A DNA stretch of 33,408 nt from a virus: UHGV virus genome UHGV-0124208; one strand, given 5' to 3'. Below the pieces are notes generated by a model. It was not told where the DNA came from. It searched no databases and saw only the letters and a program-made list of their open reading frames with translations. A program made the translations under genes and the position numbers. Of this stretch, positions 8,987 to 31,701 are shown in pieces (the first letter of the stretch is position 1; each line of letters starts with the position of its first letter).

Positions 8987-9584
8987 TCTGCTGCCACCGG
9001 GTTCAACACCACTGGAGCGCCGACTGGCGCACACCTGCAGCGGGATTTCTGATCTGCAGGTGCCACTGCGTGACTTATGGAATCCGGCGACCTGTCCGGT
9101 CAGTTTCCTGCCTTATCTCGCCTGGGCATTCTCTGTGGATCGCTGGGACGAGAGCTGGACAGAAAGCGTCAAGCGCCAGGTGGTGAAGGATGCTTTTTAT
9201 ATTCATCAGCATAAAGGGACCACCAGTGCCGTGCGGCGGGTGGTGGAGCCGTTCGGCTTTCTGATCCGCATTATTGAGTGGTGGCAGACCGGAGAGGCAC
9301 CGGGCACGTTTCGCCTGGATATCGGCGTGCAGGACCAGGGCATCACTGAAGATACCTATCTGGAACTTGAGCGACTGATAAGCGATGCCAAACCATGTAG
9401 CCGCCACATGATCGGCATGTCCATCAATCTGCAGACCAGCGGACCGCATTGGGTGGGAGCCGCCAGCTATCTTGGCGAAGAAATCACGATCTATCCGTAT
9501 ATCAACGAAACGATTATTTCCGGTGGCACCGCGCATGAAGGCGGGGCGGTCCATGTTATTGACACAATGAGAGTGAATCCATGA
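8979..9584 (+). CDS. I: Baseplate / tail protein gpI
   Basis: 201-aa ORF overlapping the J stop; position between J and H as in P2. Confidence 0.8.
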   Translation: MNSLLPPGSTPLERRLAHTCSGISDLQVPLRDLWNPATCPVSFLPYLAWAFSVDRWDESWTESVKRQVVKDAFYIHQHKGTTSAVRRVVEPFGFLIRIIEWWQTGEAPGTFRLDIGVQDQGITEDTYLELERLISDAKPCSRHMIGMSINLQTSGPHWVGAASYLGEEITIYPYINETIISGGTAHEGGAVHVIDTMRVNP

Positions 9585-11044
9585 GCACAAAATTTTATAC
9601 CCTGCTGACGGATATTGGCGCGGCGAAACTTGCCAGCGCCGCCGCGATCGGTGTGCCGCTAAAAATTACCCATATGGCGGTGGGCGATGGCGGCGGAGTA
9701 TTGCCAACGCCGGACGCAAAGCAGACGGCACTGGTAAATGAGAAACGCCGGGCTGCGCTGAATATGCTTTATATCGACCCGCAGAATAGCAGCCAGATTA
9801 TTGCTGAACAGGTGATCCCTGAAAACGAGGGCGGTTGGTGGATACGTGAAGTGGGCCTGTTTGATGAGTCAGGGGCATTGATTGCCGTGGGGAACTGCCC
9901 GGAAAGCTATAAACCGCAACTGGCTGAAGGCAGCGGGCGTACCCAGACCGTGCGCATGGTGCTGATTACCAGCAGTACGGACAATATCACACTGAAAATT
10001 GACCCTGCCGTAGTGCTGGCAACCCGCAAGTATGTGGATGATAAGGTACTGGAGCTGAAGGTGTACGCGGATGATCAGATGGCAAAACATCTTGCCGCAC
10101 CGGACCCGCATTCACAGTATGCGCCAAAAGACAGCCCGACGTTTACCGGAACCCCCAAAGCGCCAACGCCAGCGGCGGGGAATAATACTACGCAGCTTGC
10201 GACCACCGCGTTTGTTCAGGCGGCACTGACGACCCTGATTAATGGTGCGCCAGCCACGCTGGACACGCTGAAAGAAATTGCCGCAGCCATTAACAATGAC
10301 CCGAAATTCAGTACCACCATTAACAATGCGCTGGCACTGAAAGCGCCGCTGTCGAGTCCGGCACTCACCGGAACGCCAACCGCACCTACTGCGGCACAGT
10401 CGGTCAACAATACACAGATTGCCACCACGGCATTTGTGAAATCGGCGATTGCGGCAATGGTGGGTTCTGCACCTGCGGCACTGGATACACTGAACGAACT
10501 GGCGGCGGCGCTGGGGAATGACCCGAACTTTGCCACGACAATGCTTAATGCACTGGCAGGTAAACAACCGCTGGACAATACGCTGACTAATTTGAGTGGA
10601 AAGGATGTAGCTGGTCTTCTCACATACCTTGGTTTAGGAGAAGGCTCTGCATTACCCGTAGGTGTGCCTGTTCCGTGGCCTTCAGTCACACCGCCAACAG
10701 GCTGGCTGAAATGCAACGGTGCAGCTTTTTCTGCCGAAGAGTATCCGGAACTGGCAAAAGTTTATCCGACAAATAAATTGCCAGATTTACGCGGCGAATT
10801 CATTCGTGGGTGGGATGATGGAAGAGGAATTGATTCAGGACGGACTCTCCTGTCTGCTCAGGACGGGAGCATTGAGGCACACGGCCATGATTACAATGGG
10901 GTCATCTATACTTCTAGCGGTCCTTCCTGGGCTAATACGACGGATGCGGGACACCGGGCATATTCGGGATTTACATCATCATATGGCGGAAGCGAAACCC
11001 GTCCACGAAATATTGCATTTAACTATATCGTAAGGGCTGCATAA
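9581..11044 (+). CDS. H: Tail fibre protein gpH; the C-terminal receptor-binding tip (from about residue 351) lies inside an invertible segment
   Basis: 487-aa ORF; N-terminus MSTKFYTLLTDIGAAKLA... is P2 H-like; internal about 73-aa tandem repeat; crossover site at 10617-10642 within the coding sequence. Confidence 0.85.
   Translation: MSTKFYTLLTDIGAAKLASAAAIGVPLKITHMAVGDGGGVLPTPDAKQTALVNEKRRAALNMLYIDPQNSSQIIAEQVIPENEGGWWIREVGLFDESGALIAVGNCPESYKPQLAEGSGRTQTVRMVLITSSTDNITLKIDPAVVLATRKYVDDKVLELKVYADDQMAKHLAAPDPHSQYAPKDSPTFTGTPKAPTPAAGNNTTQLATTAFVQAALTTLINGAPATLDTLKEIAAAINNDPKFSTTINNALALKAPLSSPALTGTPTAPTAAQSVNNTQIATTAFVKSAIAAMVGSAPAALDTLNELAAALGNDPNFATTMLNALAGKQPLDNTLTNLSGKDVAGLLTYLGLGEGSALPVGVPVPWPSVTPPTGWLKCNGAAFSAEEYPELAKVYPTNKLPDLRGEFIRGWDDGRGIDSGRTLLSAQDGSIEAHGHDYNGVIYTSSGPSWANTTDAGHRAYSGFTSSYGGSETRPRNIAFNYIVRAA
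10133..10573 (+). repeat. Tandem duplication (2 x about 73 codons) inside tail fibre H
   Basis: Protein residues 185-257 (SPTFTGTPKAPTPAAGNNTTQLATTAFVQAALTTLINGAPATLDTLKEIAAAINNDPKFSTTINNALALKAPL) and 258-331 (SSPALTGTPTAPTAAQSVNNTQIATTAFVKSAIAAMVGSAPAALDTLNELAAALGNDPNFATTMLNALAGKQPL) are clearly homologous. Confidence 0.85.
10617..10642. promoter_or_regulatory. Hin/Gin-type 26-bp inversion crossover site inside H (left boundary of invertible segment)
   Basis: TTCTCACATACC-TT-GGTTTAGGAGAA: imperfect dyad with a 2-bp core, same layout as hix/gix/cix sites; the right half encodes G-L-G-E in the H frame. Confidence 0.7.
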
Positions 11045-11646
11045 TGGATAACGCCGTATTAAATAGCGAGATTATTGCCACGAAGGCGGGGAATATTACC
11101 GTCTATAACTATGATGGTAAAACTCGGGAATATATTTCTACTTCAAATGAATATCTTGCCATTGGTGTCGGTATCCCTGCATATTCCTGTTTAGATTCAC
11201 CAGTTACACGTAAAGCTGGTTATGCAATCTGCCGTTCTGCAGATTTTAACTCATGGGAATATGTGCCAGATCATCGCGGTGAAATCGTTTTTAGCACCGA
11301 AACAGGAGAATCAAAAGAAATCACAGCACCAGGTGATTACCCTGAAAATACAACCACTATCGCCCCGTTAACGCCATACGATGAATGGGATGGTGAGAAA
11401 TGGGTGACGGATACCGAGGCACAGCATAGCGCCGCAGTAGACGCGGCAGAAGCACAGCGCCAGTCGCTGATTGATGCTGCAATGGCTTCCATTAGTCTGA
11501 TTCAGCTGAAATTACAGGCCGGGCGGAAGCTGACGCAGGCAGAAACCACCCGGCTTAACGCCGTGCTTGATTACATTGACGCGGTGACGGCAACAGATAC
11601 GAGCACCGCGCCGGATGTCATCTGGCCTGAACTGCCGGAGGCGTAG
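11044..11646 (+). CDS. G: Tail fibre assembly chaperone gpG (paired with the currently expressed H tip)
   Basis: 200-aa ORF overlapping the H stop (TAATGG); ends ...DVIWPELPEA, the typical Tfa C-terminus. Confidence 0.8.
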   Translation: MDNAVLNSEIIATKAGNITVYNYDGKTREYISTSNEYLAIGVGIPAYSCLDSPVTRKAGYAICRSADFNSWEYVPDHRGEIVFSTETGESKEITAPGDYPENTTTIAPLTPYDEWDGEKWVTDTEAQHSAAVDAAEAQRQSLIDAAMASISLIQLKLQAGRKLTQAETTRLNAVLDYIDAVTATDTSTAPDVIWPELPEA

Positions 11647-12058
11647 GCCATTCAATATCTGGCGCACCGGAAGTATCGACCAGTTCCAGTGCGTCCAGAT
11701 AATCCAGCCACAAATTATATTGCGCCAGTTCGTCACCTTTCAGACGACCAATAGCCGCTTTACCAGGCCATTGTTTACTGTTCATATAATCGTTGGCCTG
11801 ATTAATCAATTGCTGCTTTTCCAGTTCGGCTGCAGCAATCTGTTCCTCATGTGTTGGTGGTGGAATTTCAGACCATGCAGGAAAACCATTTTCTCCAGCG
11901 ATACGGATTTTTCCTTTCGGCGGTAATCCGGAAAACTCAATATACACCTGCTCATCAACTTCAACAGCATCATCTGGCCATGAGTCAGCTTGAGTGTAAT
12001 CCTCTTTCATCTCCAGCGGATAGAAAGAGTTTGTAGTCGCGGAATATATATAATTCAT
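11618..12058 (-). CDS. Alternative tail fibre assembly chaperone (G'), paired with the silent alternative H tip
   Basis: 146-aa minus-strand ORF convergent with, and overlapping, G; ends ...APDIEWPTPPAVQAR, the same Tfa C-terminal signature. Confidence 0.75.
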   Translation of the reverse strand: MNYIYSATTNSFYPLEMKEDYTQADSWPDDAVEVDEQVYIEFSGLPPKGKIRIAGENGFPAWSEIPPPTHEEQIAAAELEKQQLINQANDYMNSKQWPGKAAIGRLKGDELAQYNLWLDYLDALELVDTSGAPDIEWPTPPAVQAR

Positions 12059-12079
12059 TTCTCATTCCATATAGCTAAA

Positions 12080-12472
12080 TTAACAGCCTAACGCTAAAAA
12101 TGAAGCGCCGAGACCTGGAGTACCGGCTCTGGATATAAATTTAACCGGGTCGGAACTAAAACCTGCACAGGCAATATAACCAACAGCCCCGCTATCTGGT
12201 GTGTAGTCTTGTGAGACCAAAACACGCAGACATCTGTTCGGAAATGCAATCGGGAAATGGGTTACCACATCCTGTGCAATGCCTGGAGTGCTGATTGAGC
12301 CCCACTGAAGAATCAAACCAGATGGTAATTTTTGATATCCAGTACCTGAAACAGAAAGCGTGAAGCTACCCATATCAGGTATCTGATTCGCCCCTGTCCC
12401 CACATTCCTTTTTGCCGCTTCTCCCAAACCAACGTTTATGAAAATGCAGAGATAACGGCTAACTGGCATCAT
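12080..12472 (-). CDS. Alternative tail-fibre C-terminal tip segment (Hv'), promoterless; would fuse in frame to the H constant part after inversion
   Basis: Minus-strand ORF whose N-terminal region spans the 12419-12444 crossover site and encodes the same G-L-G-E junction as H; no independent start is expected (the ATG at 12472 is probably fortuitous). Confidence 0.65.
12419..12444. promoter_or_regulatory. Hin/Gin-type 26-bp inversion crossover site (right boundary of invertible segment)
   Basis: TTCTCCCAAACC-AA-CGTTTATGAAAA; its reverse complement aligns with the 10617 site (core TT, flanking half GGTTTGGGAGAA vs GGTTTAGGAGAA). Confidence 0.7.
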
Positions 12473-12499
12473 CTCCGGTTTTTATTCAGGGGGATGATC

Positions 12500-13066
12500 A
12501 TGCTTATTGGCTATGTACGCGTGTCAACAAATGACCAGAACACCGATTTGCAACGCAATGCACTGAACTGTGCGGGATGTGAGCGGATTTTTGAGGATAA
12601 AATCAGTGGCACCAAGTCCGACAGACCGGGGCTGAAAAAGCTGCTCAGGACACTATCGGCAGGAGACACGCTGGTTGTCTGGAAGCTGGACAGACTGGGG
12701 CGCAGTATGCGGCATCTTGTTACGCTGATAGAAGAGCTGCGCCAGCGTGGCGTGAATTTCCGAAGCCTGACTGACAGTATTGATACCAGCACCCCAATGG
12801 GCCGTTTCTTTTTTCATGTCATGGGTGCCCTGGCTGAAATGGAACGCGAACTGATAGTTGAACGTACCAGGGCGGGGCTGGCTGCAGCTCGTGCTAAAGG
12901 CAGAGTAGGTGGACGCCGTCCTAAGTTGACCAGCGAACAGTGGGCACAGATTGGGCGTTTACTCGAGGCCGGAGAATCAAGACAGCGTATTGCACTGATT
13001 TTTGATGTAGGCGTTTCTACCATTTATCGAAAATTTCCGGCAAATAAGAACAATAAATCTCCCTGA
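12500..13066 (+). CDS. Site-specific DNA invertase, serine recombinase of the Gin/Hin/Pin/Cin family
   Basis: MLIGYVRVSTNDQNTDLQRNAL...GDTLVVWKLDRLGRS...MGRFFFHVMGALAEMERELIVERT... is near-identical in motif content to Gin/Hin as I recall them (catalytic Ser in YVRVS). ATG 12500 chosen over 12494 for spacing to the GGGGG RBS. Confidence 0.9.
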   Translation: MLIGYVRVSTNDQNTDLQRNALNCAGCERIFEDKISGTKSDRPGLKKLLRTLSAGDTLVVWKLDRLGRSMRHLVTLIEELRQRGVNFRSLTDSIDTSTPMGRFFFHVMGALAEMERELIVERTRAGLAAARAKGRVGGRRPKLTSEQWAQIGRLLEAGESRQRIALIFDVGVSTIYRKFPANKNNKSP

Positions 13067-13114
13067 ATCAGCTTTATTTTGATTATCCCTGAAAGCAGAC
13101 AAATACCGTCATTT

Positions 13115-13132
13115 TGTGTGAATAACGGTACA
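13115..13132. promoter_or_regulatory. TGT-N12-ACA dyad, candidate Ogr-dependent late promoter element for the FI operon
   Basis: TGTGTGAATAACGGTACA read directly; closely resembles the dyad at 1185-1202; upstream of FI (ATG 13209). Confidence 0.5.
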
Positions 13133-13208
13133 ACTGCGCTTAGCTGTTTGTCAGGCACAATCACTTCAACATAGGGCGAAGCCTAATCCAATCAGGAGGT
13201 TCGCCACT

Positions 13209-14381
13209 ATGGCTCAGGATTACCACCACGGGGTGCGCGTTGTTGAAGTCAACGAAGGCACCCGATCCATTACCACGGTGAGCACCGCCATCGTGGGTAT
13301 GGTCTGCACGGGCGATGATGCCGATGCAAAAATGTTTCCTCTTAATAAACCCGTGCTGATCACTGATGTGCTGACTGCCAGCGGTAAAGCGGGTGAGTCA
13401 GGCACGCTGGCTCGTTCGCTGGATGCCATCGCTGACCAGGCAAAACCCGTGACCGTTGTTGTGCGTGTGCCGCAGGGTGAAACGGAAGAAGAAACCACGA
13501 CCAATATCATCGGAGCAGTGACCGCTGAAGGTAAAAAAACAGGCATGAAAGCCCTGTTATCTGCCCAGTCACAGCTCGGCGTTAAACCGCGCATTCTCGG
13601 CGTGCCAGGTCACGACACGAAGGCGGTAGCTACTGAGTTGCTGAGCGTGGCGCAAAGCCTGCGTGGATTTGCTTACCTGTCAGCGTATGGTTGCAAGACA
13701 GTGCAGGAAGCAATCACTTACCGTGAAAACTTCAGTCAGCGTGAAGGAATGCTGATCTGGCCCGACTTTACTGGCTGGGACACGGTGCTGAATGCCGAAG
13801 CAACGGCTTATGCCACCGCCCGTGCGCTTGGTCTGCGCGCCAAAATTGACGAGCAGACCGGATGGCACAAAAGCCTGTCCAACGTGGGCGTTAACGGTGT
13901 CACCGGAATTTCTGCTGATGTGTTCTGGGATCTGCAGGACCCGGCAACCGATGCGGGACTGCTGAACCAGAACGACGTCACCACCCTTATCCGCAAAGAC
14001 GGTTTTCGCTTCTGGGGTTCCCGCTGCCTGAGTGATGACCCGCTCTTTGCCTTCGAAAACTACACCCGCACGGCGCAGGTGCTGACGGACACGATGGCAG
14101 AAGCGCACATGTGGGCGGTGGATAAACCGCTGAATCCGTCGCTGGCCCGCGACATTATCGAGGGTATCCGCGCCAAAATGCGCAGCCTGGTCAGTCAGGG
14201 CTATCTCATTGGTGGTGATTGCTGGCTGGATGAGTCGGTGAACGACAAAGACACGCTGAAAGCCGGAAAACTCACCATCGACTACGACTACACGCCAGTG
14301 CCGCCACTTGAAAACCTGATGCTGCGTCAGCGCATCACCGATCAGTACCTGGTGAATTTCTCCAGCCAGGTCAGCGCGTAA
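13209..14381 (+). CDS. FI: Tail sheath protein gpFI
   Basis: 390-aa ORF with a good RBS (AGGAGG); size and position as P2 FI. Confidence 0.9.
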
Positions 14382-20520: not shown

Positions 20521-21573
20521 TTACGGGGTAATGCCAACCGCTGCCGCCACTTTGTCGCCACTTGGCAGCGTTGCCAGAGGATTGAAACGGAGCGCCGTTT
20601 CCAGATGATCTGGTGCCAGATGTGCGTAACGCATAGTCATTTTTATATCGTGGTGTCCGAGAATTTTTTGTAAGGCGAGAATGTTTCCACCCGACATCAT
20701 GAAGTGCGCCGCAAACGTATGGCGCAGAACGTGTGTGAGTTGACCGCGAGGGAGCACGATAGACGTTTTTTCCATCACGGATAAAAATTGAAAATAGCAG
20801 TCTGTAAAGAAATTGAACCCATCAAGCGCCATGATCTCTTCGTAAAGCTCTTTACTGATAGGGATGCTTCTGTTTTTCTTCCCCTTCGTTCTGACAAAGG
20901 TAATTCGGTATTTGGTCACCTGTGAGCGGGTAAGATTTACGGCTTCACGCCAGCGTGCGCCTGTGCTTAAGCATATCTTAACTACCAGTGCCAGAATTGG
21001 GTCCTGACGTTTGCAATCAGCCAGCAATTCAACAATCTGCTCATGGGTAAGCCATGCCATCTCTTTTTCTGCGATGGTGAATTTTCGCATGTTCTCCAGT
21101 GGGTTCGGATACGACCATTCGCCCAGACGGGATAGTTCGCTAAAAACACTACTTAGATAGCTTTGCTCCAGGTTAATGGTGACCGGGCTTGCTCCTTTCT
21201 TCCATTTCTCGCTGAAGTAGATCTCGCCTGTCAGGCGTTTATCTCGATAGTGGGCAAACATTTTAGAGGTGAGATCGGTTGCAAGAGGATTACCCAGAGC
21301 GTCAACCATCAACAGCAATTTGTCATAGACATGCTGCCCAGCTGTCAGAGATTTACCATGTAGTTTGAACCATAGCTCAACCACGTCTTTCAGTGTTCGA
21401 CGATCCACTGATTCACCCAGCCAGGGCTTTGCTTCGGTTTCTTCTATCGTGTGGCGCTCAAAAGCCAGAGCTTCGCCTTTGGTGGCGAATTGTTTACGCA
21501 CCCGACGCCCACTACGTCCGGCGGGGTAACATTCGCAAAGCCATTTTCCTGTGGTGAGTTTTCGTACTGCCAT
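20521..21573 (-). CDS. int: Tyrosine integrase
   Basis: 350-aa minus-strand ORF; the C-terminus has HVLRHTFAAHF...GHHDIKMTMRYAHL (the R..HxxR..Y tyrosine-recombinase signature); adjacent to attP as in P2. Confidence 0.9.
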   Translation of the reverse strand: MAVRKLTTGKWLCECYPAGRSGRRVRKQFATKGEALAFERHTIEETEAKPWLGESVDRRTLKDVVELWFKLHGKSLTAGQHVYDKLLLMVDALGNPLATDLTSKMFAHYRDKRLTGEIYFSEKWKKGASPVTINLEQSYLSSVFSELSRLGEWSYPNPLENMRKFTIAEKEMAWLTHEQIVELLADCKRQDPILALVVKICLSTGARWREAVNLTRSQVTKYRITFVRTKGKKNRSIPISKELYEEIMALDGFNFFTDCYFQFLSVMEKTSIVLPRGQLTHVLRHTFAAHFMMSGGNILALQKILGHHDIKMTMRYAHLAPDHLETALRFNPLATLPSGDKVAAAVGITP

Positions 21574-21646: not shown

Positions 21647-23416
21647 TCATACGTCAGGGGTAATCCAGTCGACTAAAGCCTCAATACTTTCGAAATCTGC
21701 ACAGATATCTGAAAGAGGTTGTGTATCTGCTTTTGTTTTGAAATCAGCCCATACTGATTCATTTTTTTCTGTAAGACCCAAATGGTTTTCTATCGAACCA
21801 TTTAGCCAAATCCAAATATTTGCATTTCTCAGTTTTGCGGCTAATGATGACAAAAATTCTCTGGCGCCGGGCTTTTGAGACATAATAGCAAATGCTTCAG
21901 CTGCGGTAGTGTTACTACCCTTTGTAGGCAAACCGGATCCATCGAGAGTGCATTCTCCATTAGCATGCATACTTCTCAAGATTTCTTTTAGTCGTAAAAT
22001 ATCCTCGTCATTATGTTCTAAGAAGTTGTTCCTTATTGCACCGCGGAACGCAAAATCTAAATCAACAATTGCTTTTGTAGGTATATCCATTGAATTTAGA
22101 ATTTGCATCGTTTTAGATATACTTTCAACGGACCCTGTTTCAATTAGTGCTATTTGCATCTGACCTAATGTTTTATTTTTAACTTTGTTAAAAATAAATG
22201 GGAGCAGAGTAGTCTCTGTTTTACCTTCTGTTAGTATTACATTGTTAGCAAACAAAACTTTTGAAGACTGTGTTAATGAAAATAAATGGGTTGCTTGTGC
22301 TGGTCGTTGTTCGATTACTTTATTGACTGCTTCTTTTAATGTTAATCTGCAATGAGTGCCACGCTGACTGTTTTTTCTGATTAACACAGTGTCTTTTGCT
22401 AAGTCAGAGGTAATCATTTGAGATGAATGGGTAGAGAAAATTATTTGATATCCATGATGAGATAGTGTTTTTAGAGATTCTCTAATTTGTTCGATAGCAA
22501 ATGGGTGAAGATATAACTCAGGTTCATCTATTAACAGTAGAGTAGTTGTTTTAATATCATCACCGTTGGTTATATCAGCTAAATGTCTTATTAGAGACAT
22601 CTGAATCGAACGCTGTGTGCCATGACCATAAGAAGAACAGTCACGAGCAATGCCGGGAAATGAATCTTCATATACTTTTACAGTCCCAGATTTAAATATA
22701 TCCTTGAAGTCAGGGAGTTCGAAGTGTAGTTTTAAACTTATCCCAGGGAAGAAATCAGCAAGTTTACTACTTATTGAATCATCAATATCATTGAGGTCCG
22801 ATATTCGTTTATTACCGGTTGCAGTCATTCTTCTATTAACGGCATTTAAATGGCTTAGTATCCTTTGAGTGTGCTTCTCTTCTATTTTGCAACTCAATTC
22901 TGCCAGCAACTTACCTATTGTAGTTCCTGTTTTTGATTTTGAAGAATCATCCGCTGCATTTTCCATTGCACCTATACGTATTGGGTCTGGAAATAAAGCT
23001 TTTATCGCATTCTCAATACCCGTTGGTGATGTCCTGAATTCGTTATTTTCTGGGTTTTTAATTAATAATCTGACGTCTTTTGCACTTTGAGCACCAACAG
23101 TCTGTTGACGCTTAAATATCAATACCCCATCAATAATGTAGGGTGAAATTCTAGTTCTGTTTTCTTCTGTTAAAGCTGACAAAATATCTTCAGTAATACC
23201 CTTAACTGTACCTATAACTTCTATAGGGTTATCTGGATTAGTATAATCATCAGAGGACAAAAGTTTTTTCTTAAAAAGCCATTCAATAGCATTTAAAATC
23301 GTTGACTTACCAGCATTGTTGTAACCGATTAAAGGCGTGAATGAAGAAAAATTGATATCAATATCTTTGCAAGATCTAAAGTTTTTTATAGAAATCTTTG
23401 AAAGATGATGATTCAT
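21647..23416 (-). CDS. old: OLD-family ATP-dependent nuclease (N-terminal ABC-type ATPase + C-terminal Toprim), P2 Old-like, single-gene
   Basis: 589-aa ORF. N-terminal Walker A in ISIKNFRSCK...LIGYNNAGKSTILNAI; central FGHGTQRSIQM and LLIDEPELYLHP (Walker B-like); C-terminal VILTEGKTET...VDLDF Toprim-like acidic motifs. AT-rich relative to flanks. Located between cI and int. Confidence 0.75.
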   Translation of the reverse strand: MNHHLSKISIKNFRSCKDIDINFSSFTPLIGYNNAGKSTILNAIEWLFKKKLLSSDDYTNPDNPIEVIGTVKGITEDILSALTEENRTRISPYIIDGVLIFKRQQTVGAQSAKDVRLLIKNPENNEFRTSPTGIENAIKALFPDPIRIGAMENAADDSSKSKTGTTIGKLLAELSCKIEEKHTQRILSHLNAVNRRMTATGNKRISDLNDIDDSISSKLADFFPGISLKLHFELPDFKDIFKSGTVKVYEDSFPGIARDCSSYGHGTQRSIQMSLIRHLADITNGDDIKTTTLLLIDEPELYLHPFAIEQIRESLKTLSHHGYQIIFSTHSSQMITSDLAKDTVLIRKNSQRGTHCRLTLKEAVNKVIEQRPAQATHLFSLTQSSKVLFANNVILTEGKTETTLLPFIFNKVKNKTLGQMQIALIETGSVESISKTMQILNSMDIPTKAIVDLDFAFRGAIRNNFLEHNDEDILRLKEILRSMHANGECTLDGSGLPTKGSNTTAAEAFAIMSQKPGAREFLSSLAAKLRNANIWIWLNGSIENHLGLTEKNESVWADFKTKADTQPLSDICADFESIEALVDWITPDV

Positions 23417-23459: not shown

Positions 23460-24398
23460 TTATTGTATTGTTAAGATAATGCTGGCTATAATTTGAATAT
23501 CCTCAATGGAACACTCAAAATCCTTACTCCCACCAGAAACAAGAATTTTGTTCTTAGGTAAACGAGTTAACTCTTTTAAAGATAACTCATTGTCAATTCC
23601 TACTAACCATTTTCCATCTCTAATTAGGTGAAATTCTTTATCACATATGACATGTTTTTCTCCATTGCTTACAAACATCAAGCTGCTAGTTTCTTGCTTC
23701 GGAAGTAGACACCGATCCATGGATAAAAAACCTGACTCGACAAGCACGCCATTGACCAAATTGAACTTATTTAAAATTACAGTGTTTTCTTCTTGTGAAC
23801 TATTTGGTGTTTCGATTCCTGTAACTAGCCAGGCGAGATCCGCTTTGGTTTCTAATGCGCATTTAATCACCCAATCCGCAGGGAAAGAATCTCGCATGTA
23901 TCGTGTGGCTAATGTGCTTTTTGAAATACCAAGGTGGTCGGCTAAGGCTTGGCGGGTTTTAAACCCGTAAGCATTAACAATCCTCTCTATCGCGGCTTTT
24001 CCTCCGTTAGTAAGCTCAATGTGATTCTCAATGCGGCGCTTAAAGGATGATTGATGAGCGTTGCTGTTAAACCCCTCATGTGGGACTGTTTCATCATGTT
24101 GTTCCACATAAGGGGGGAAACTTTCTTCTGCATTGTTAGAACCAAAGGCCAGCCATTCTAGGGATGCGCCAGTTTCCATTGAACATATAACAACCCAATC
24201 AGCAGGGAAGGTATCGCGTGCATATCTATTAGCCATTGTGCTTTGTGAAATACCAAGATGCTTACAGAAGGCTTGGCGTGATTTGAAACCATAGGCCTTG
24301 AGTATCCTCTCAATGACTTTTTGCCCTCCACGATTCTGCATGACCATAGCTTTCAGACTATCTTCAATATGGCGAAATGTGATTTTTTGAGTTGACAT
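23460..24398 (-). CDS. cI: Immunity repressor CI, coliphage 186 type, with a tandemly duplicated N-terminal DNA-binding domain
   Basis: 312-aa ORF. Residues about 28-85 (VIERILKAYGFKSRQAFCKHLGISQSTMANRYARDTFPADWVVICSMETGASLEWLAFG) and about 128-185 (AIERIVNAYGFKTRQALADHLGISKSTLATRYMRDSFPADWVIKCALETKADLAWLVTG) are two copies of the 186 CI N-terminal domain motif; about 125-aa C-terminal domain. Divergent from apl-cII. Confidence 0.75.
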   Translation of the reverse strand: MSTQKITFRHIEDSLKAMVMQNRGGQKVIERILKAYGFKSRQAFCKHLGISQSTMANRYARDTFPADWVVICSMETGASLEWLAFGSNNAEESFPPYVEQHDETVPHEGFNSNAHQSSFKRRIENHIELTNGGKAAIERIVNAYGFKTRQALADHLGISKSTLATRYMRDSFPADWVIKCALETKADLAWLVTGIETPNSSQEENTVILNKFNLVNGVLVESGFLSMDRCLLPKQETSSLMFVSNGEKHVICDKEFHLIRDGKWLVGIDNELSLKELTRLPKNKILVSGGSKDFECSIEDIQIIASIILTIQ

Positions 24399-26063: not shown

Positions 26064-26290
26064 TGGCTGATGCAATGGATCTTGTACAGCAGCGCGTTGA
26101 AGAAGAACGCCAGCGCCATATCCGTGCTGCCCGTGCCAAAACGCCGGGCGTGTCCCGCGTGCTTTGCATTGAGTGTGAAGCGCCAATTCCGCCAGCACGC
26201 CGCCGCGCCATTCCAGGTGTGCAGCTTTGCATTACCTGTCAGGAAATCGCAGAGCTGAAAGGCAAACATTACAACGGAGGTGCTGTATGA
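26063..26290 (+). CDS. TraR/DksA-family C4 zinc-finger protein
   Basis: 75-aa ORF with CIECEAPIP...CITCQ (CxxC-N17-CxxC), characteristic of phage TraR-like proteins (P2 orf82-like position). Confidence 0.75.
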   Translation: MADAMDLVQQRVEEERQRHIRAARAKTPGVSRVLCIECEAPIPPARRRAIPGVQLCITCQEIAELKGKHYNGGAV

Positions 26291-27144
26291 GCACCATCCT
26301 GAAATGGGCGGGAAATAAAACCGCAATTATGTCCGAACTGAAAAAACACCTTCCTGCTGGCCCGCGACTGGTTGAACCTTTCGCGGGTTCCTGTGCTGTG
26401 ATGATGGAGACGGATTATCCAAGCTATCTGGTTGCGGATATTAATCCTGATTTAATCAACCTCTATAAAAAGGTTGCCGCTGATTGTGAATCGTTTATAT
26501 CTCGCGCCAGAGTTTTATTTGAGATCGCAAACAGGGAGGTGGCTTATTACAACATAAGGCAGGAGTTTAATTACTCCACTGAAATTACTGATTTCATGAA
26601 AGCGGTATATTTCCTGTATCTCAATCGTCACGGTTACCGTGGTTTATGTCGCTATAACAAGAGCAGGCATTTCAACATTCCCTACGGTAATTATAAAAAT
26701 CCGTATTTCCCTGAAAAAGAACTTCGCACATTTGCAGAAAAAGCCCAGCGAGCAACGTTTGTCTGCGCCAGCTTTGATGAAACGCTGGCGATGTTGAAGG
26801 CGGGGGATGTGGTGTATTGCGATCCGCCGTATGACGGTACGTTTTCCGGCTATCACACTGATGGTTTCACTGAAGATGACCAGTATCACCTGGCATCCGT
26901 TCTTGAACATCGGTCATCAGAAGGACATCCGGTCATTGTTTCTAACAATGACACATCCCTGATTCGTTCGCTGTATCGCAATTTTACTCACCACTATATC
27001 AAGGCAAAACGCAGCATCGGCGTGTCAGCTGGCGAGGGTAAATCTGCAACAGAAATCATTGCTGTTTCCGGGCCGAGTTGCTGGTTGGGATTTGATCCTT
27101 CGCGTGGCGTGGATAGTTCTGCCGTGTACGGAGTGTGTGTATGA
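26287..27144 (+). CDS. DNA N6-adenine methyltransferase (Dam/D12 class)
   Basis: From ATG 26287: [11 protein letters not shown]...EPFAGSCAV... (AdoMet-binding region) and VYCDPPYDG (DPPY catalytic motif); overlaps the upstream stop (ATGA) and the A start. Confidence 0.85.
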
Positions 27145-31155: not shown

Positions 31156-31701
31156 ATGGACGTTATAACTGGAGTTGCAGAGTTTTTTCGAAAAGTACCT
31201 GCAGCATTTCTTGTGGCTATTACATGTGTTTTAGGTCTTATACTTTTTCTGCCAGACTCTTTGGCAGTAAAAGTGGCTGTTGATGGCTTTCGTAATGAGT
31301 ATAGGATTTTTATTGGACCTGCATTTTTACTGTCTGTATCTTATTTAGTTGCAAGAGTCTATCTCTCTTTCTATGACTTACTTGGTGAAAGGCAGGCTAA
31401 GAAGGTACGCACTTCCTACCTTGAGAAGCTAACAGCAGAAGAAAAAGGATATTTAAAGTCTTATATTACCGAAGGTGTTAATTCACTTATGTGTGGGCCT
31501 GAGGATGGGGTCATGGGGGGACTTGTGGCTAAGGGGATTACTTATAGAGCCACCAGTGTTGGGGATATGATCTACGGTTTTGCTTTCAACTTACAGCCAT
31601 GGGCGCGTGAACATTTAGAGAAAAATAGTCATTTATTAGATGGGGCTATTGGGCGTGCAATGACTCCAAGAGAAAAATTAAACTTTAGATTGGGACGCTA
31701 A
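31156..31701 (+). CDS. Membrane protein with two N-terminal TM helices, unknown function (accessory gene between cos and Q)
   Basis: 181-aa ORF with RBS GGAGG; hydrophobic segments AAFLVAITCVLGLILFLP and IFIGPAFLLSVSYLVARVYL followed by a soluble domain; AT-rich; followed by a strong hairpin. Confidence 0.65.
   Translation: MDVITGVAEFFRKVPAAFLVAITCVLGLILFLPDSLAVKVAVDGFRNEYRIFIGPAFLLSVSYLVARVYLSFYDLLGERQAKKVRTSYLEKLTAEEKGYLKSYITEGVNSLMCGPEDGVMGGLVAKGITYRATSVGDMIYGFAFNLQPWAREHLEKNSHLLDGAIGRAMTPREKLNFRLGR

Follow-up and report, generated by a model that had tools for sequence, protein, structure and literature searches.

A probable Pin-type inversion switch between two tail-fiber tips in a P2/186-like phage genome

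Introduction

The P segment of e14 in Escherichia coli K-12, the inversion loci of P2-like prophages in enteropathogenic E. coli (EPEC) E2348/69, and the G segment of phage Mu are the closest described relatives of the element analyzed here. This element is an invertible tail-fiber tip cassette in the virus genome UHGV-0124208, a stretch of 33,408 nucleotides that we call the window. We conclude that the cassette is very probably a Pin-type site-specific inversion switch, which equips the virions with one of two receptor-binding tips, each served by a chaperone of its own. Elements of this kind, their presence at this place in P2-like phages, and their activity have all been documented before; the switch is already known, and the first-pass annotation of the window read it correctly.

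In e14, the genes follow the order tip, Tfa, convergent Tfa', silent tip', invertase (PinE), on a segment of about 1.8 kb (1797 bp; PMC12529663). The window has the same order on a segment of 1802 bp. However, e14 is a defective lambdoid element whose fiber gene is a pseudogene, whereas the window holds a complete P2/186-like late operon in which the constant part of the fiber gene H is intact. The silent tip of the window (tip 2) is just 25% identical to StfP of e14.

P2-like prophage loci of EPEC E2348/69 flip within clonal cultures, as observed by paired-end sequencing and the polymerase chain reaction (Goldberg et al. 2014, PMC4272514). The simple locus of this strain (NC_011601 2977580-2979467) was 93% forward (PMC4272514). 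It carries the same cassette pair as the window, with an invertase that is 80% identical, but the constant part of H is deleted and the left site abuts a truncated integrase gene (L123 2744-3094). Inversion at the simple EPEC locus thus persists in a prophage remnant unable to make a complete fiber. With two sites and two states, the window is simpler than the second EPEC locus, where there are three sites and hence four states (PMC4272514).

The Mu G segment, inverted by Gin, shares with the window a constant fiber N terminus with alternative C termini, own chaperones, an invertase gene just outside the right-hand site, and 26-bp sites with a 2-bp core. The Mu segment differs in its size (~3 kb, with much larger variable parts), in the core of its gix sites (TC/GA), and in its tips and chaperones, which are essentially unrelated to those of the window except at the Tfa C termini. 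The P1 C segment, inverted by Cin, is the same kind of arrangement. Reference P2, by contrast, has a single fixed H tip and carries the T5-exclusion gene fun(Z) in the slot that the cassette occupies here. This Z/fun hotspot often codes for a DNA invertase, with inversion of adjacent genes and swapping of tail-fiber cassettes (Egorov et al. 2024, bioRxiv 10.1101/2024.10.15.618418).

Both orientations of the cassette

The cassette and the fiber gene into which it is built comprise the following features.

9581-11044, plus strand: tail-fiber gene H, 487 aa, with a Phage_tail_fib N terminus and a Collar domain.
9581-10628, plus strand: constant part of H, residues 1 to ~350, as far as the crossover core; residues 1-150 match Pfam Phage_tail_fib; 49% identity with P2 H.
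10617-10642: left crossover site (site 1), inside H; 12 bp, TT core, 12 bp, TTCTCACATACC TT GGTTTAGGAGAA; codes for ..YLGLGE.
10643-11044, plus strand: tip 1 of H, 133 aa, in the expressed position here; Pfam Collar; PHROG tail collar fiber; StfE-like.
11044-11646, plus strand: G, chaperone for tip 1, 200 aa, TfaE-like; Pfam Caudo_TAP; 90.5% identical to e14 TfaE.
11618-12058, minus strand: G', chaperone for tip 2, 146 aa, TfaP-like; Pfam Caudo_TAP; 61% identical to e14 TfaP.
12080-12418, minus strand: silent tip 2, 112 aa after GLGE; Pfam Gp53-like_C.
12419-12444: right crossover site (site 2); 12 bp, AA core, 12 bp, TTCTCCCAAACC AA CGTTTATGAAAA.
12500-13066, plus strand: Pin/Gin-family DNA invertase, 188 aa; Resolvase (PF00239) and HTH_7 (PF02796).

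Four independent lines of evidence, drawn largely from sequence comparison, indicate that the segment does invert at the two named sites. Both orientations occur, with breakpoints inside the sites. When 10629-12432 is flipped in silico, the fiber gene remains open and codes for H', a protein of 466 aa made of residues 1-354 (ending ..YLGLGE) and the 112-aa tip 2. Exactly this protein is present at NCBI (MGT6405974.1); the E. coli contig that codes for it is 321,926 bp long, close in length to the contigs with H. Of H itself, exact copies lie on only four contigs, the longest of 323,043 bp; its three NCBI accessions, on contigs of ~322-323 kb, form one series with that of H'. Two isogenic pairs are also available: strain 13P477T, with records L001 and L002, and the isolates NQ3 and LS4 (L004 and L005), whose chromosomes are nearly identical. 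In both pairs the flanks are 100% identical, the interior is reverse-complemented, and the overlaps at the junctions lie inside the 26-bp sites.

The two orientations are also common among relatives. Of 5,426 complete E. coli genomes searched, 136 follow the window and 100 follow the query flipped in silico, when collinearity over 80% or more of 9581-13300 is required. Among IMG/VR stretches retrieved by patterns derived from the window, the tip-1-type cassette and the invertase share a strand in 18 and lie on opposite strands in 19. As an IMG/VR query, a 28-mer of tip 2 proved too specific, returning one contig. Between the simple EPEC locus and window 10994-13041, gene order is shared and nucleotide identity is 88%; the endpoints published for this locus coincide with the core positions of sites homologous to those of the window.

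Crossover sites

The crossover sites are of the Pin/e14 type. The first-pass annotation had described two 26-bp imperfect dyads in inverted orientation, and we find them exactly where it placed them, as the only such sites in the window. After one of them is reverse-complemented, the two agree at 21 of 26 positions, with matching cores (TT/AA). Each has a 2-bp core and internal dyad symmetry, 9/12 in site 1 and 8/12 in site 2. When inverted repeats of the same 3.8 kb are ranked as such, the site pair stands only slightly above chance pairs (I1, 27 nt, 81%; I2, 26 nt, 77%). The significance of the sites comes from their match to independently known sites and not from the inverted repeat itself. 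The P segment of e14 has a right crossover site that is identical to site 2 at all positions (26/26); its left site and site 1 agree at 21/26. With the e14 sites as queries, no third place in the 33-kb window matches within 7 mismatches, and in a shuffle control none of 100 shuffles gave a match at 6 or fewer mismatches. A half-site consensus, TTCTCNNAAACC, applied with a cut-off of at least 14/20, likewise selects just sites 1 and 2 among all 26-mers of the window, and in each related locus retrieved it picks out these two positions again. The pair is assignable to the 26-bp, imperfect-dyad, inverted, identical-core type of site used by Fis/enhancer-dependent DNA invertases.

Mu gix sites used as queries give no match in the window within 7 mismatches, so that the sites are classed as Pin/e14-type and not Gin-type. 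Site 1 departs from its relatives at a few positions, for example in having A and not G at 10636. Nucleotide homology to related phages, at 95-96%, ends at 10643.

Related genomes offer two further observations on such sites. Four IMG/VR stretches (L060, L087, L088, and L101) contain a 33-nt sequence, comprising the right site and its outer flank, twice in inverted orientation and ~1.7-1.9 kb apart. The inverted repeats in these four thus reach beyond the 26-bp site. In reference P2, which has no invertase, H contains a gix-like 26-mer, TTATCGAATATC TC GGTTTACAGGAA (L008 858-883; record positions 13857-13882), that scores 15/20 on the consensus and whose right half is the same as that of Mu gixL. 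This 26-mer looks like a relic crossover site.

Fiber tips and chaperones

The two tips are unrelated to each other and each is paired with its own chaperone. Tip 1 belongs to the Collar family, is 61% identical to e14 StfE, and is related to the collar regions of T4 gp37 and gp12. Tip 2 belongs to the Gp53-like_C family and has weak matches to R-type pyocin fiber tips and to 4mtm. The peptide G-L-G-E is coded at both crossover sites, as the first-pass annotation had noted, and its proposal of an in-frame tip exchange is upheld by the open 466-aa H'. Its tip sizes need one small correction: the 112 aa of tip 2 stand, and tip 1 has 133 aa where about 134 had been given.

The claim of a separate convergent Tfa chaperone for each tip agrees with our searches, which find Caudo_TAP in both G and G' and place both in PHROG tail-fiber-assembly families. 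In the present state, G follows tip 1; in the flipped state, G' follows tip 2 on the same strand. The 3' ends of G and G' share 29 bp (11618-11646), as do those of tfaP and tfaE in e14 (L013 3518-3546), and this overlap codes on opposite strands for the conserved ..PD(V/I)xWP.. C termini of both proteins.

The annotated ORF (open reading frame) of tip 2 codes for 130 aa ("gp53-like") and reaches 12472, with its first 14 codons outside the invertible segment. The result of the flip shows this ORF to be the silent cassette plus a leader that lies outside the invertible segment.

Both tips had also been described as AT-rich. They do fall below the constant part of H (GC fraction 0.549), with 0.505 in tip 1 and 0.475 in tip 2, but the description is overstated for tip 1, whose 50.5% GC compares with a window mean of 51.4% (0.514). 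GC is lowest, at 0.41-0.43, where the two chaperone genes code for the N-terminal halves of their products. None of the five cassette proteins has a specific NCBIfam model, and the NCBIfam matches to the invertase all score under the curated cut-offs.

Invertase and candidate control elements

The invertase is a full-length member of the Pin branch of the Gin/Hin family. Its alignment with the Gin structures 3uj3 and 4m6f covers the full length (E = 1e-92), and its identity is 87% to e14 PinE and 75% to Mu Gin. A start at 12500, after GGGGGA, is preferred over the ATG at 12494. The first-pass annotation had placed an invertase gene after the cassette, which the Resolvase and HTH_7 domains bear out. 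Its Gin/Hin label is right as to family; Pin/e14-type is the more exact term, in view of the identity values and of a right site that is that of e14. It had named a catalytically dead enzyme as an outcome that would speak against inversion; we find S9 present in a full-length protein.

The catalytic and invertase-specific residues are intact. The enzyme keeps R7, S9 (the catalytic serine), D64, R65, and R68, as well as the invertase-specific K46, K47, R50, Q150, R153, and L154; these are in Gin numbering, which we take to be the Hin number minus 1, and Mu Gin has the same pattern. In Hin, Q151, R154, and L155, which contact Fis, and the basic residues 47, 48, and 51, which contact enhancer DNA, are conserved uniquely in Fis/enhancer-dependent invertases as compared with resolvases (McLean et al., PMC3798978). 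Enzymes of this class require Fis and negative supercoiling, and they invert DNA without deleting it. We infer that the invertase of the window would depend on Fis and an enhancer as well. The identical protein occurs on 996 contigs.

One candidate enhancer was located.

12521-12584, at the 5' end of the invertase gene: putative recombinational enhancer, with two G-N13-C Fis-type 15-mers at 12521-12535 and 12570-12584.

The two 15-mers span 64 bp, lie ~96 bp from the center of the right site, and match the 15-mers of Mu gin in codon position. The Hin-type enhancer is ~65 bp long, with a Fis site at each end, and lies ~100 bp from hix (PMC3798978). The geometry of 12521-12584 is thus consistent with an enhancer, without being proof of one.

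A terminator-like hairpin at 12461-12480, just outside the right site, could close the late operon in either orientation. The terminator scan gave 8 sites where 4.2 +/- 2.1 were expected, and 12445-12499 has an ordinary RNA fold (z = -1.31). We make no claim for this hairpin as a terminator.

Proposed mechanism and alternatives

We propose that the 188-aa serine invertase would bind as dimers at the two 26-bp sites and cut at their 2-bp cores (10629-10630 and 12431-12432), and that rotation of one half of the synapse would invert the 1802-bp segment. As the left site lies within H, the constant 354 residues would be joined in frame to either tip 1 or tip 2. The late promoter upstream of the V-W-J-I-H operon would stay fixed, so that only the cassette facing it would be expressed. 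A population of lysogens could then release two virion types with different receptor-binding tips, a form of host-range bet-hedging. Given their unrelated folds and families, the two tips likely bind different receptors, and they presumably confer different host ranges.

Some observations weigh against this mechanism. Strain 13P477T holds both orientations in one assembly, in two records labeled as plasmids (L001 and L002, 4461-5019 in each), and both records annotate a frameshift in the adjacent invertase. This combination suggests either an invertase acting in trans or a sequencing error in that strain. The G-N13-C motifs of the candidate enhancer are weak, the second having a GC-rich center, and they lie inside strongly conserved coding sequence; conservation of the region is therefore not independent evidence for an enhancer. 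A simple sigma-70 scan found nothing between 12444 and 12500 that could serve the invertase, and its overall count equals the shuffle expectation.

We consider it quite improbable that the main selected function of the cassette is exercised in the lysogen, where a fiber-tip protein made from the prophage would mask receptors and block superinfection, like PinQ/StfE2 of e14. Such a function has a precedent in the homologous e14 P segment, whose inversion is reported to give StfE2, a product that blocks T2 adsorption (Kirigo et al. 2025, PMC12529663). Tip 1, G, and the invertase are, moreover, 61%, 90.5%, and 87% identical to e14 StfE, TfaE, and PinE, and the exclusion/defense genes old and sieB lie on the same phage. 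However, the cassette belongs to an apparently complete phage, whose genome is circularly closed and has the full set of late genes, and whose fiber keeps an intact constant part, in contrast to e14 and the EPEC remnant. The late promoter that drives H is silent in P2 lysogens, which also counts against a role there.

The possibility that this phage carries a frozen relic, with inherited sites and invertase but no further inversion, and that the database orientations record old events, is very unlikely. The deviations of site 1 from its relatives (A at 10636) and the single orientation assembled in the metagenome contigs would fit it; but the exact flipped H' of the same allele exists, H itself being known from four contigs only, the isogenic pairs differ by the inversion alone, and the invertase is full-length, with all key residues kept and an identical protein on 996 contigs. 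There is next to no chance that RecA-dependent recombination between short inverted repeats, or assembly artifacts, produced the inversions seen in genomes. Chance inverted repeats of like length and identity do occur in the region, yet the repeat is merely 26 bp long at 21/26 identity, far below what RecA uses efficiently. The breakpoints also fall at the cores of known recombinase-target sites beside the cognate invertase, and the experimentally mapped EPEC endpoints agree with these cores.

As a Pin-type tip switch, the locus holds little new biology: the mechanism is that of textbooks, and the cassette family is present in ~236 of the 5,426 complete E. coli genomes. It has three practical consequences. 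Automated annotation presents the silent cassette as a gene of its own, for a spurious "gp53-like domain-containing protein"; prediction of host range for such phages needs both tips; and this locus may be a source of heterogeneity in lysogen assemblies. It is rather doubtful, in our estimate, that the cassette has a second role in which the invertase acts in trans on other resident segments (e14, Mu-like, or P2-like, with near-identical sites) and the tip product masks receptors, as proposed for PinQ/StfE2. If it did, the prophage would be part of a cross-talking, invertase-driven network of defense and phase variation. The 26-bp sites may also serve as joints at which unrelated phages exchange tip/chaperone cassettes, since the homology to relatives stops exactly at 10643.

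Genome context

The cassette occupies the Z/fun slot. The reference P2 annotation has fun(Z) after G and before the pF promoter and FI; in the window, the interval from G to FI holds G', tip 2, and the invertase instead. Two features mark the right-hand side of the slot.

13115-13132, plus strand: TGT-N12-ACA late-activator-type site of the pF promoter, 94 bp before FI; right-hand boundary of the Z/fun slot.
13209: start of tail sheath gene FI.

The annotated P2 activator site is 91 bp before FI, as compared with 94 bp in the window. Together with the P2 annotation, the positions of FI and of the activator-type site corroborate the assignment to this slot in the first-pass annotation.

The window appears to be a circular permutation of a whole, apparently complete P2/186-like phage genome; a 591-aa ORF for the large terminase subunit, on the minus strand, spans the 33408/1 junction. 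A prophage in E. coli GCA_053264795.1 and human gut metagenome contigs of run SRR1778451 agree with the window at 100% identity over the stretches compared. At 33,535 bp and 33,438 bp, the metagenome contigs are longer than the window by 127 and 30. Such lengths are consistent with circular contigs that retain a k-mer overlap, and hence with excised or replicating phage.

A full-length Old-family ATPase-TOPRIM nuclease (21647-23416, minus strand; PADLOC Old, 776 bits) lies between the integrase gene (20521-21573, minus strand) and the CI repressor gene, at the third P2-like hotspot and not at the classical old/tin position. The CI-type repressor ORF (23460-24398, minus strand) codes for 312 aa, with two Phage_CI_repr helix-turn-helix stretches and Phage_CI_C. 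It is longer than expected for a 186-type CI, and could be an over-extended ORF or contain a duplicated helix-turn-helix. The old/tin hotspot, before the portal gene, holds a homologue of the superinfection-exclusion protein SieB (31156-31701, plus strand). A D12-class Dam methyltransferase gene (26227-27144, plus strand) lies just upstream of gpA.

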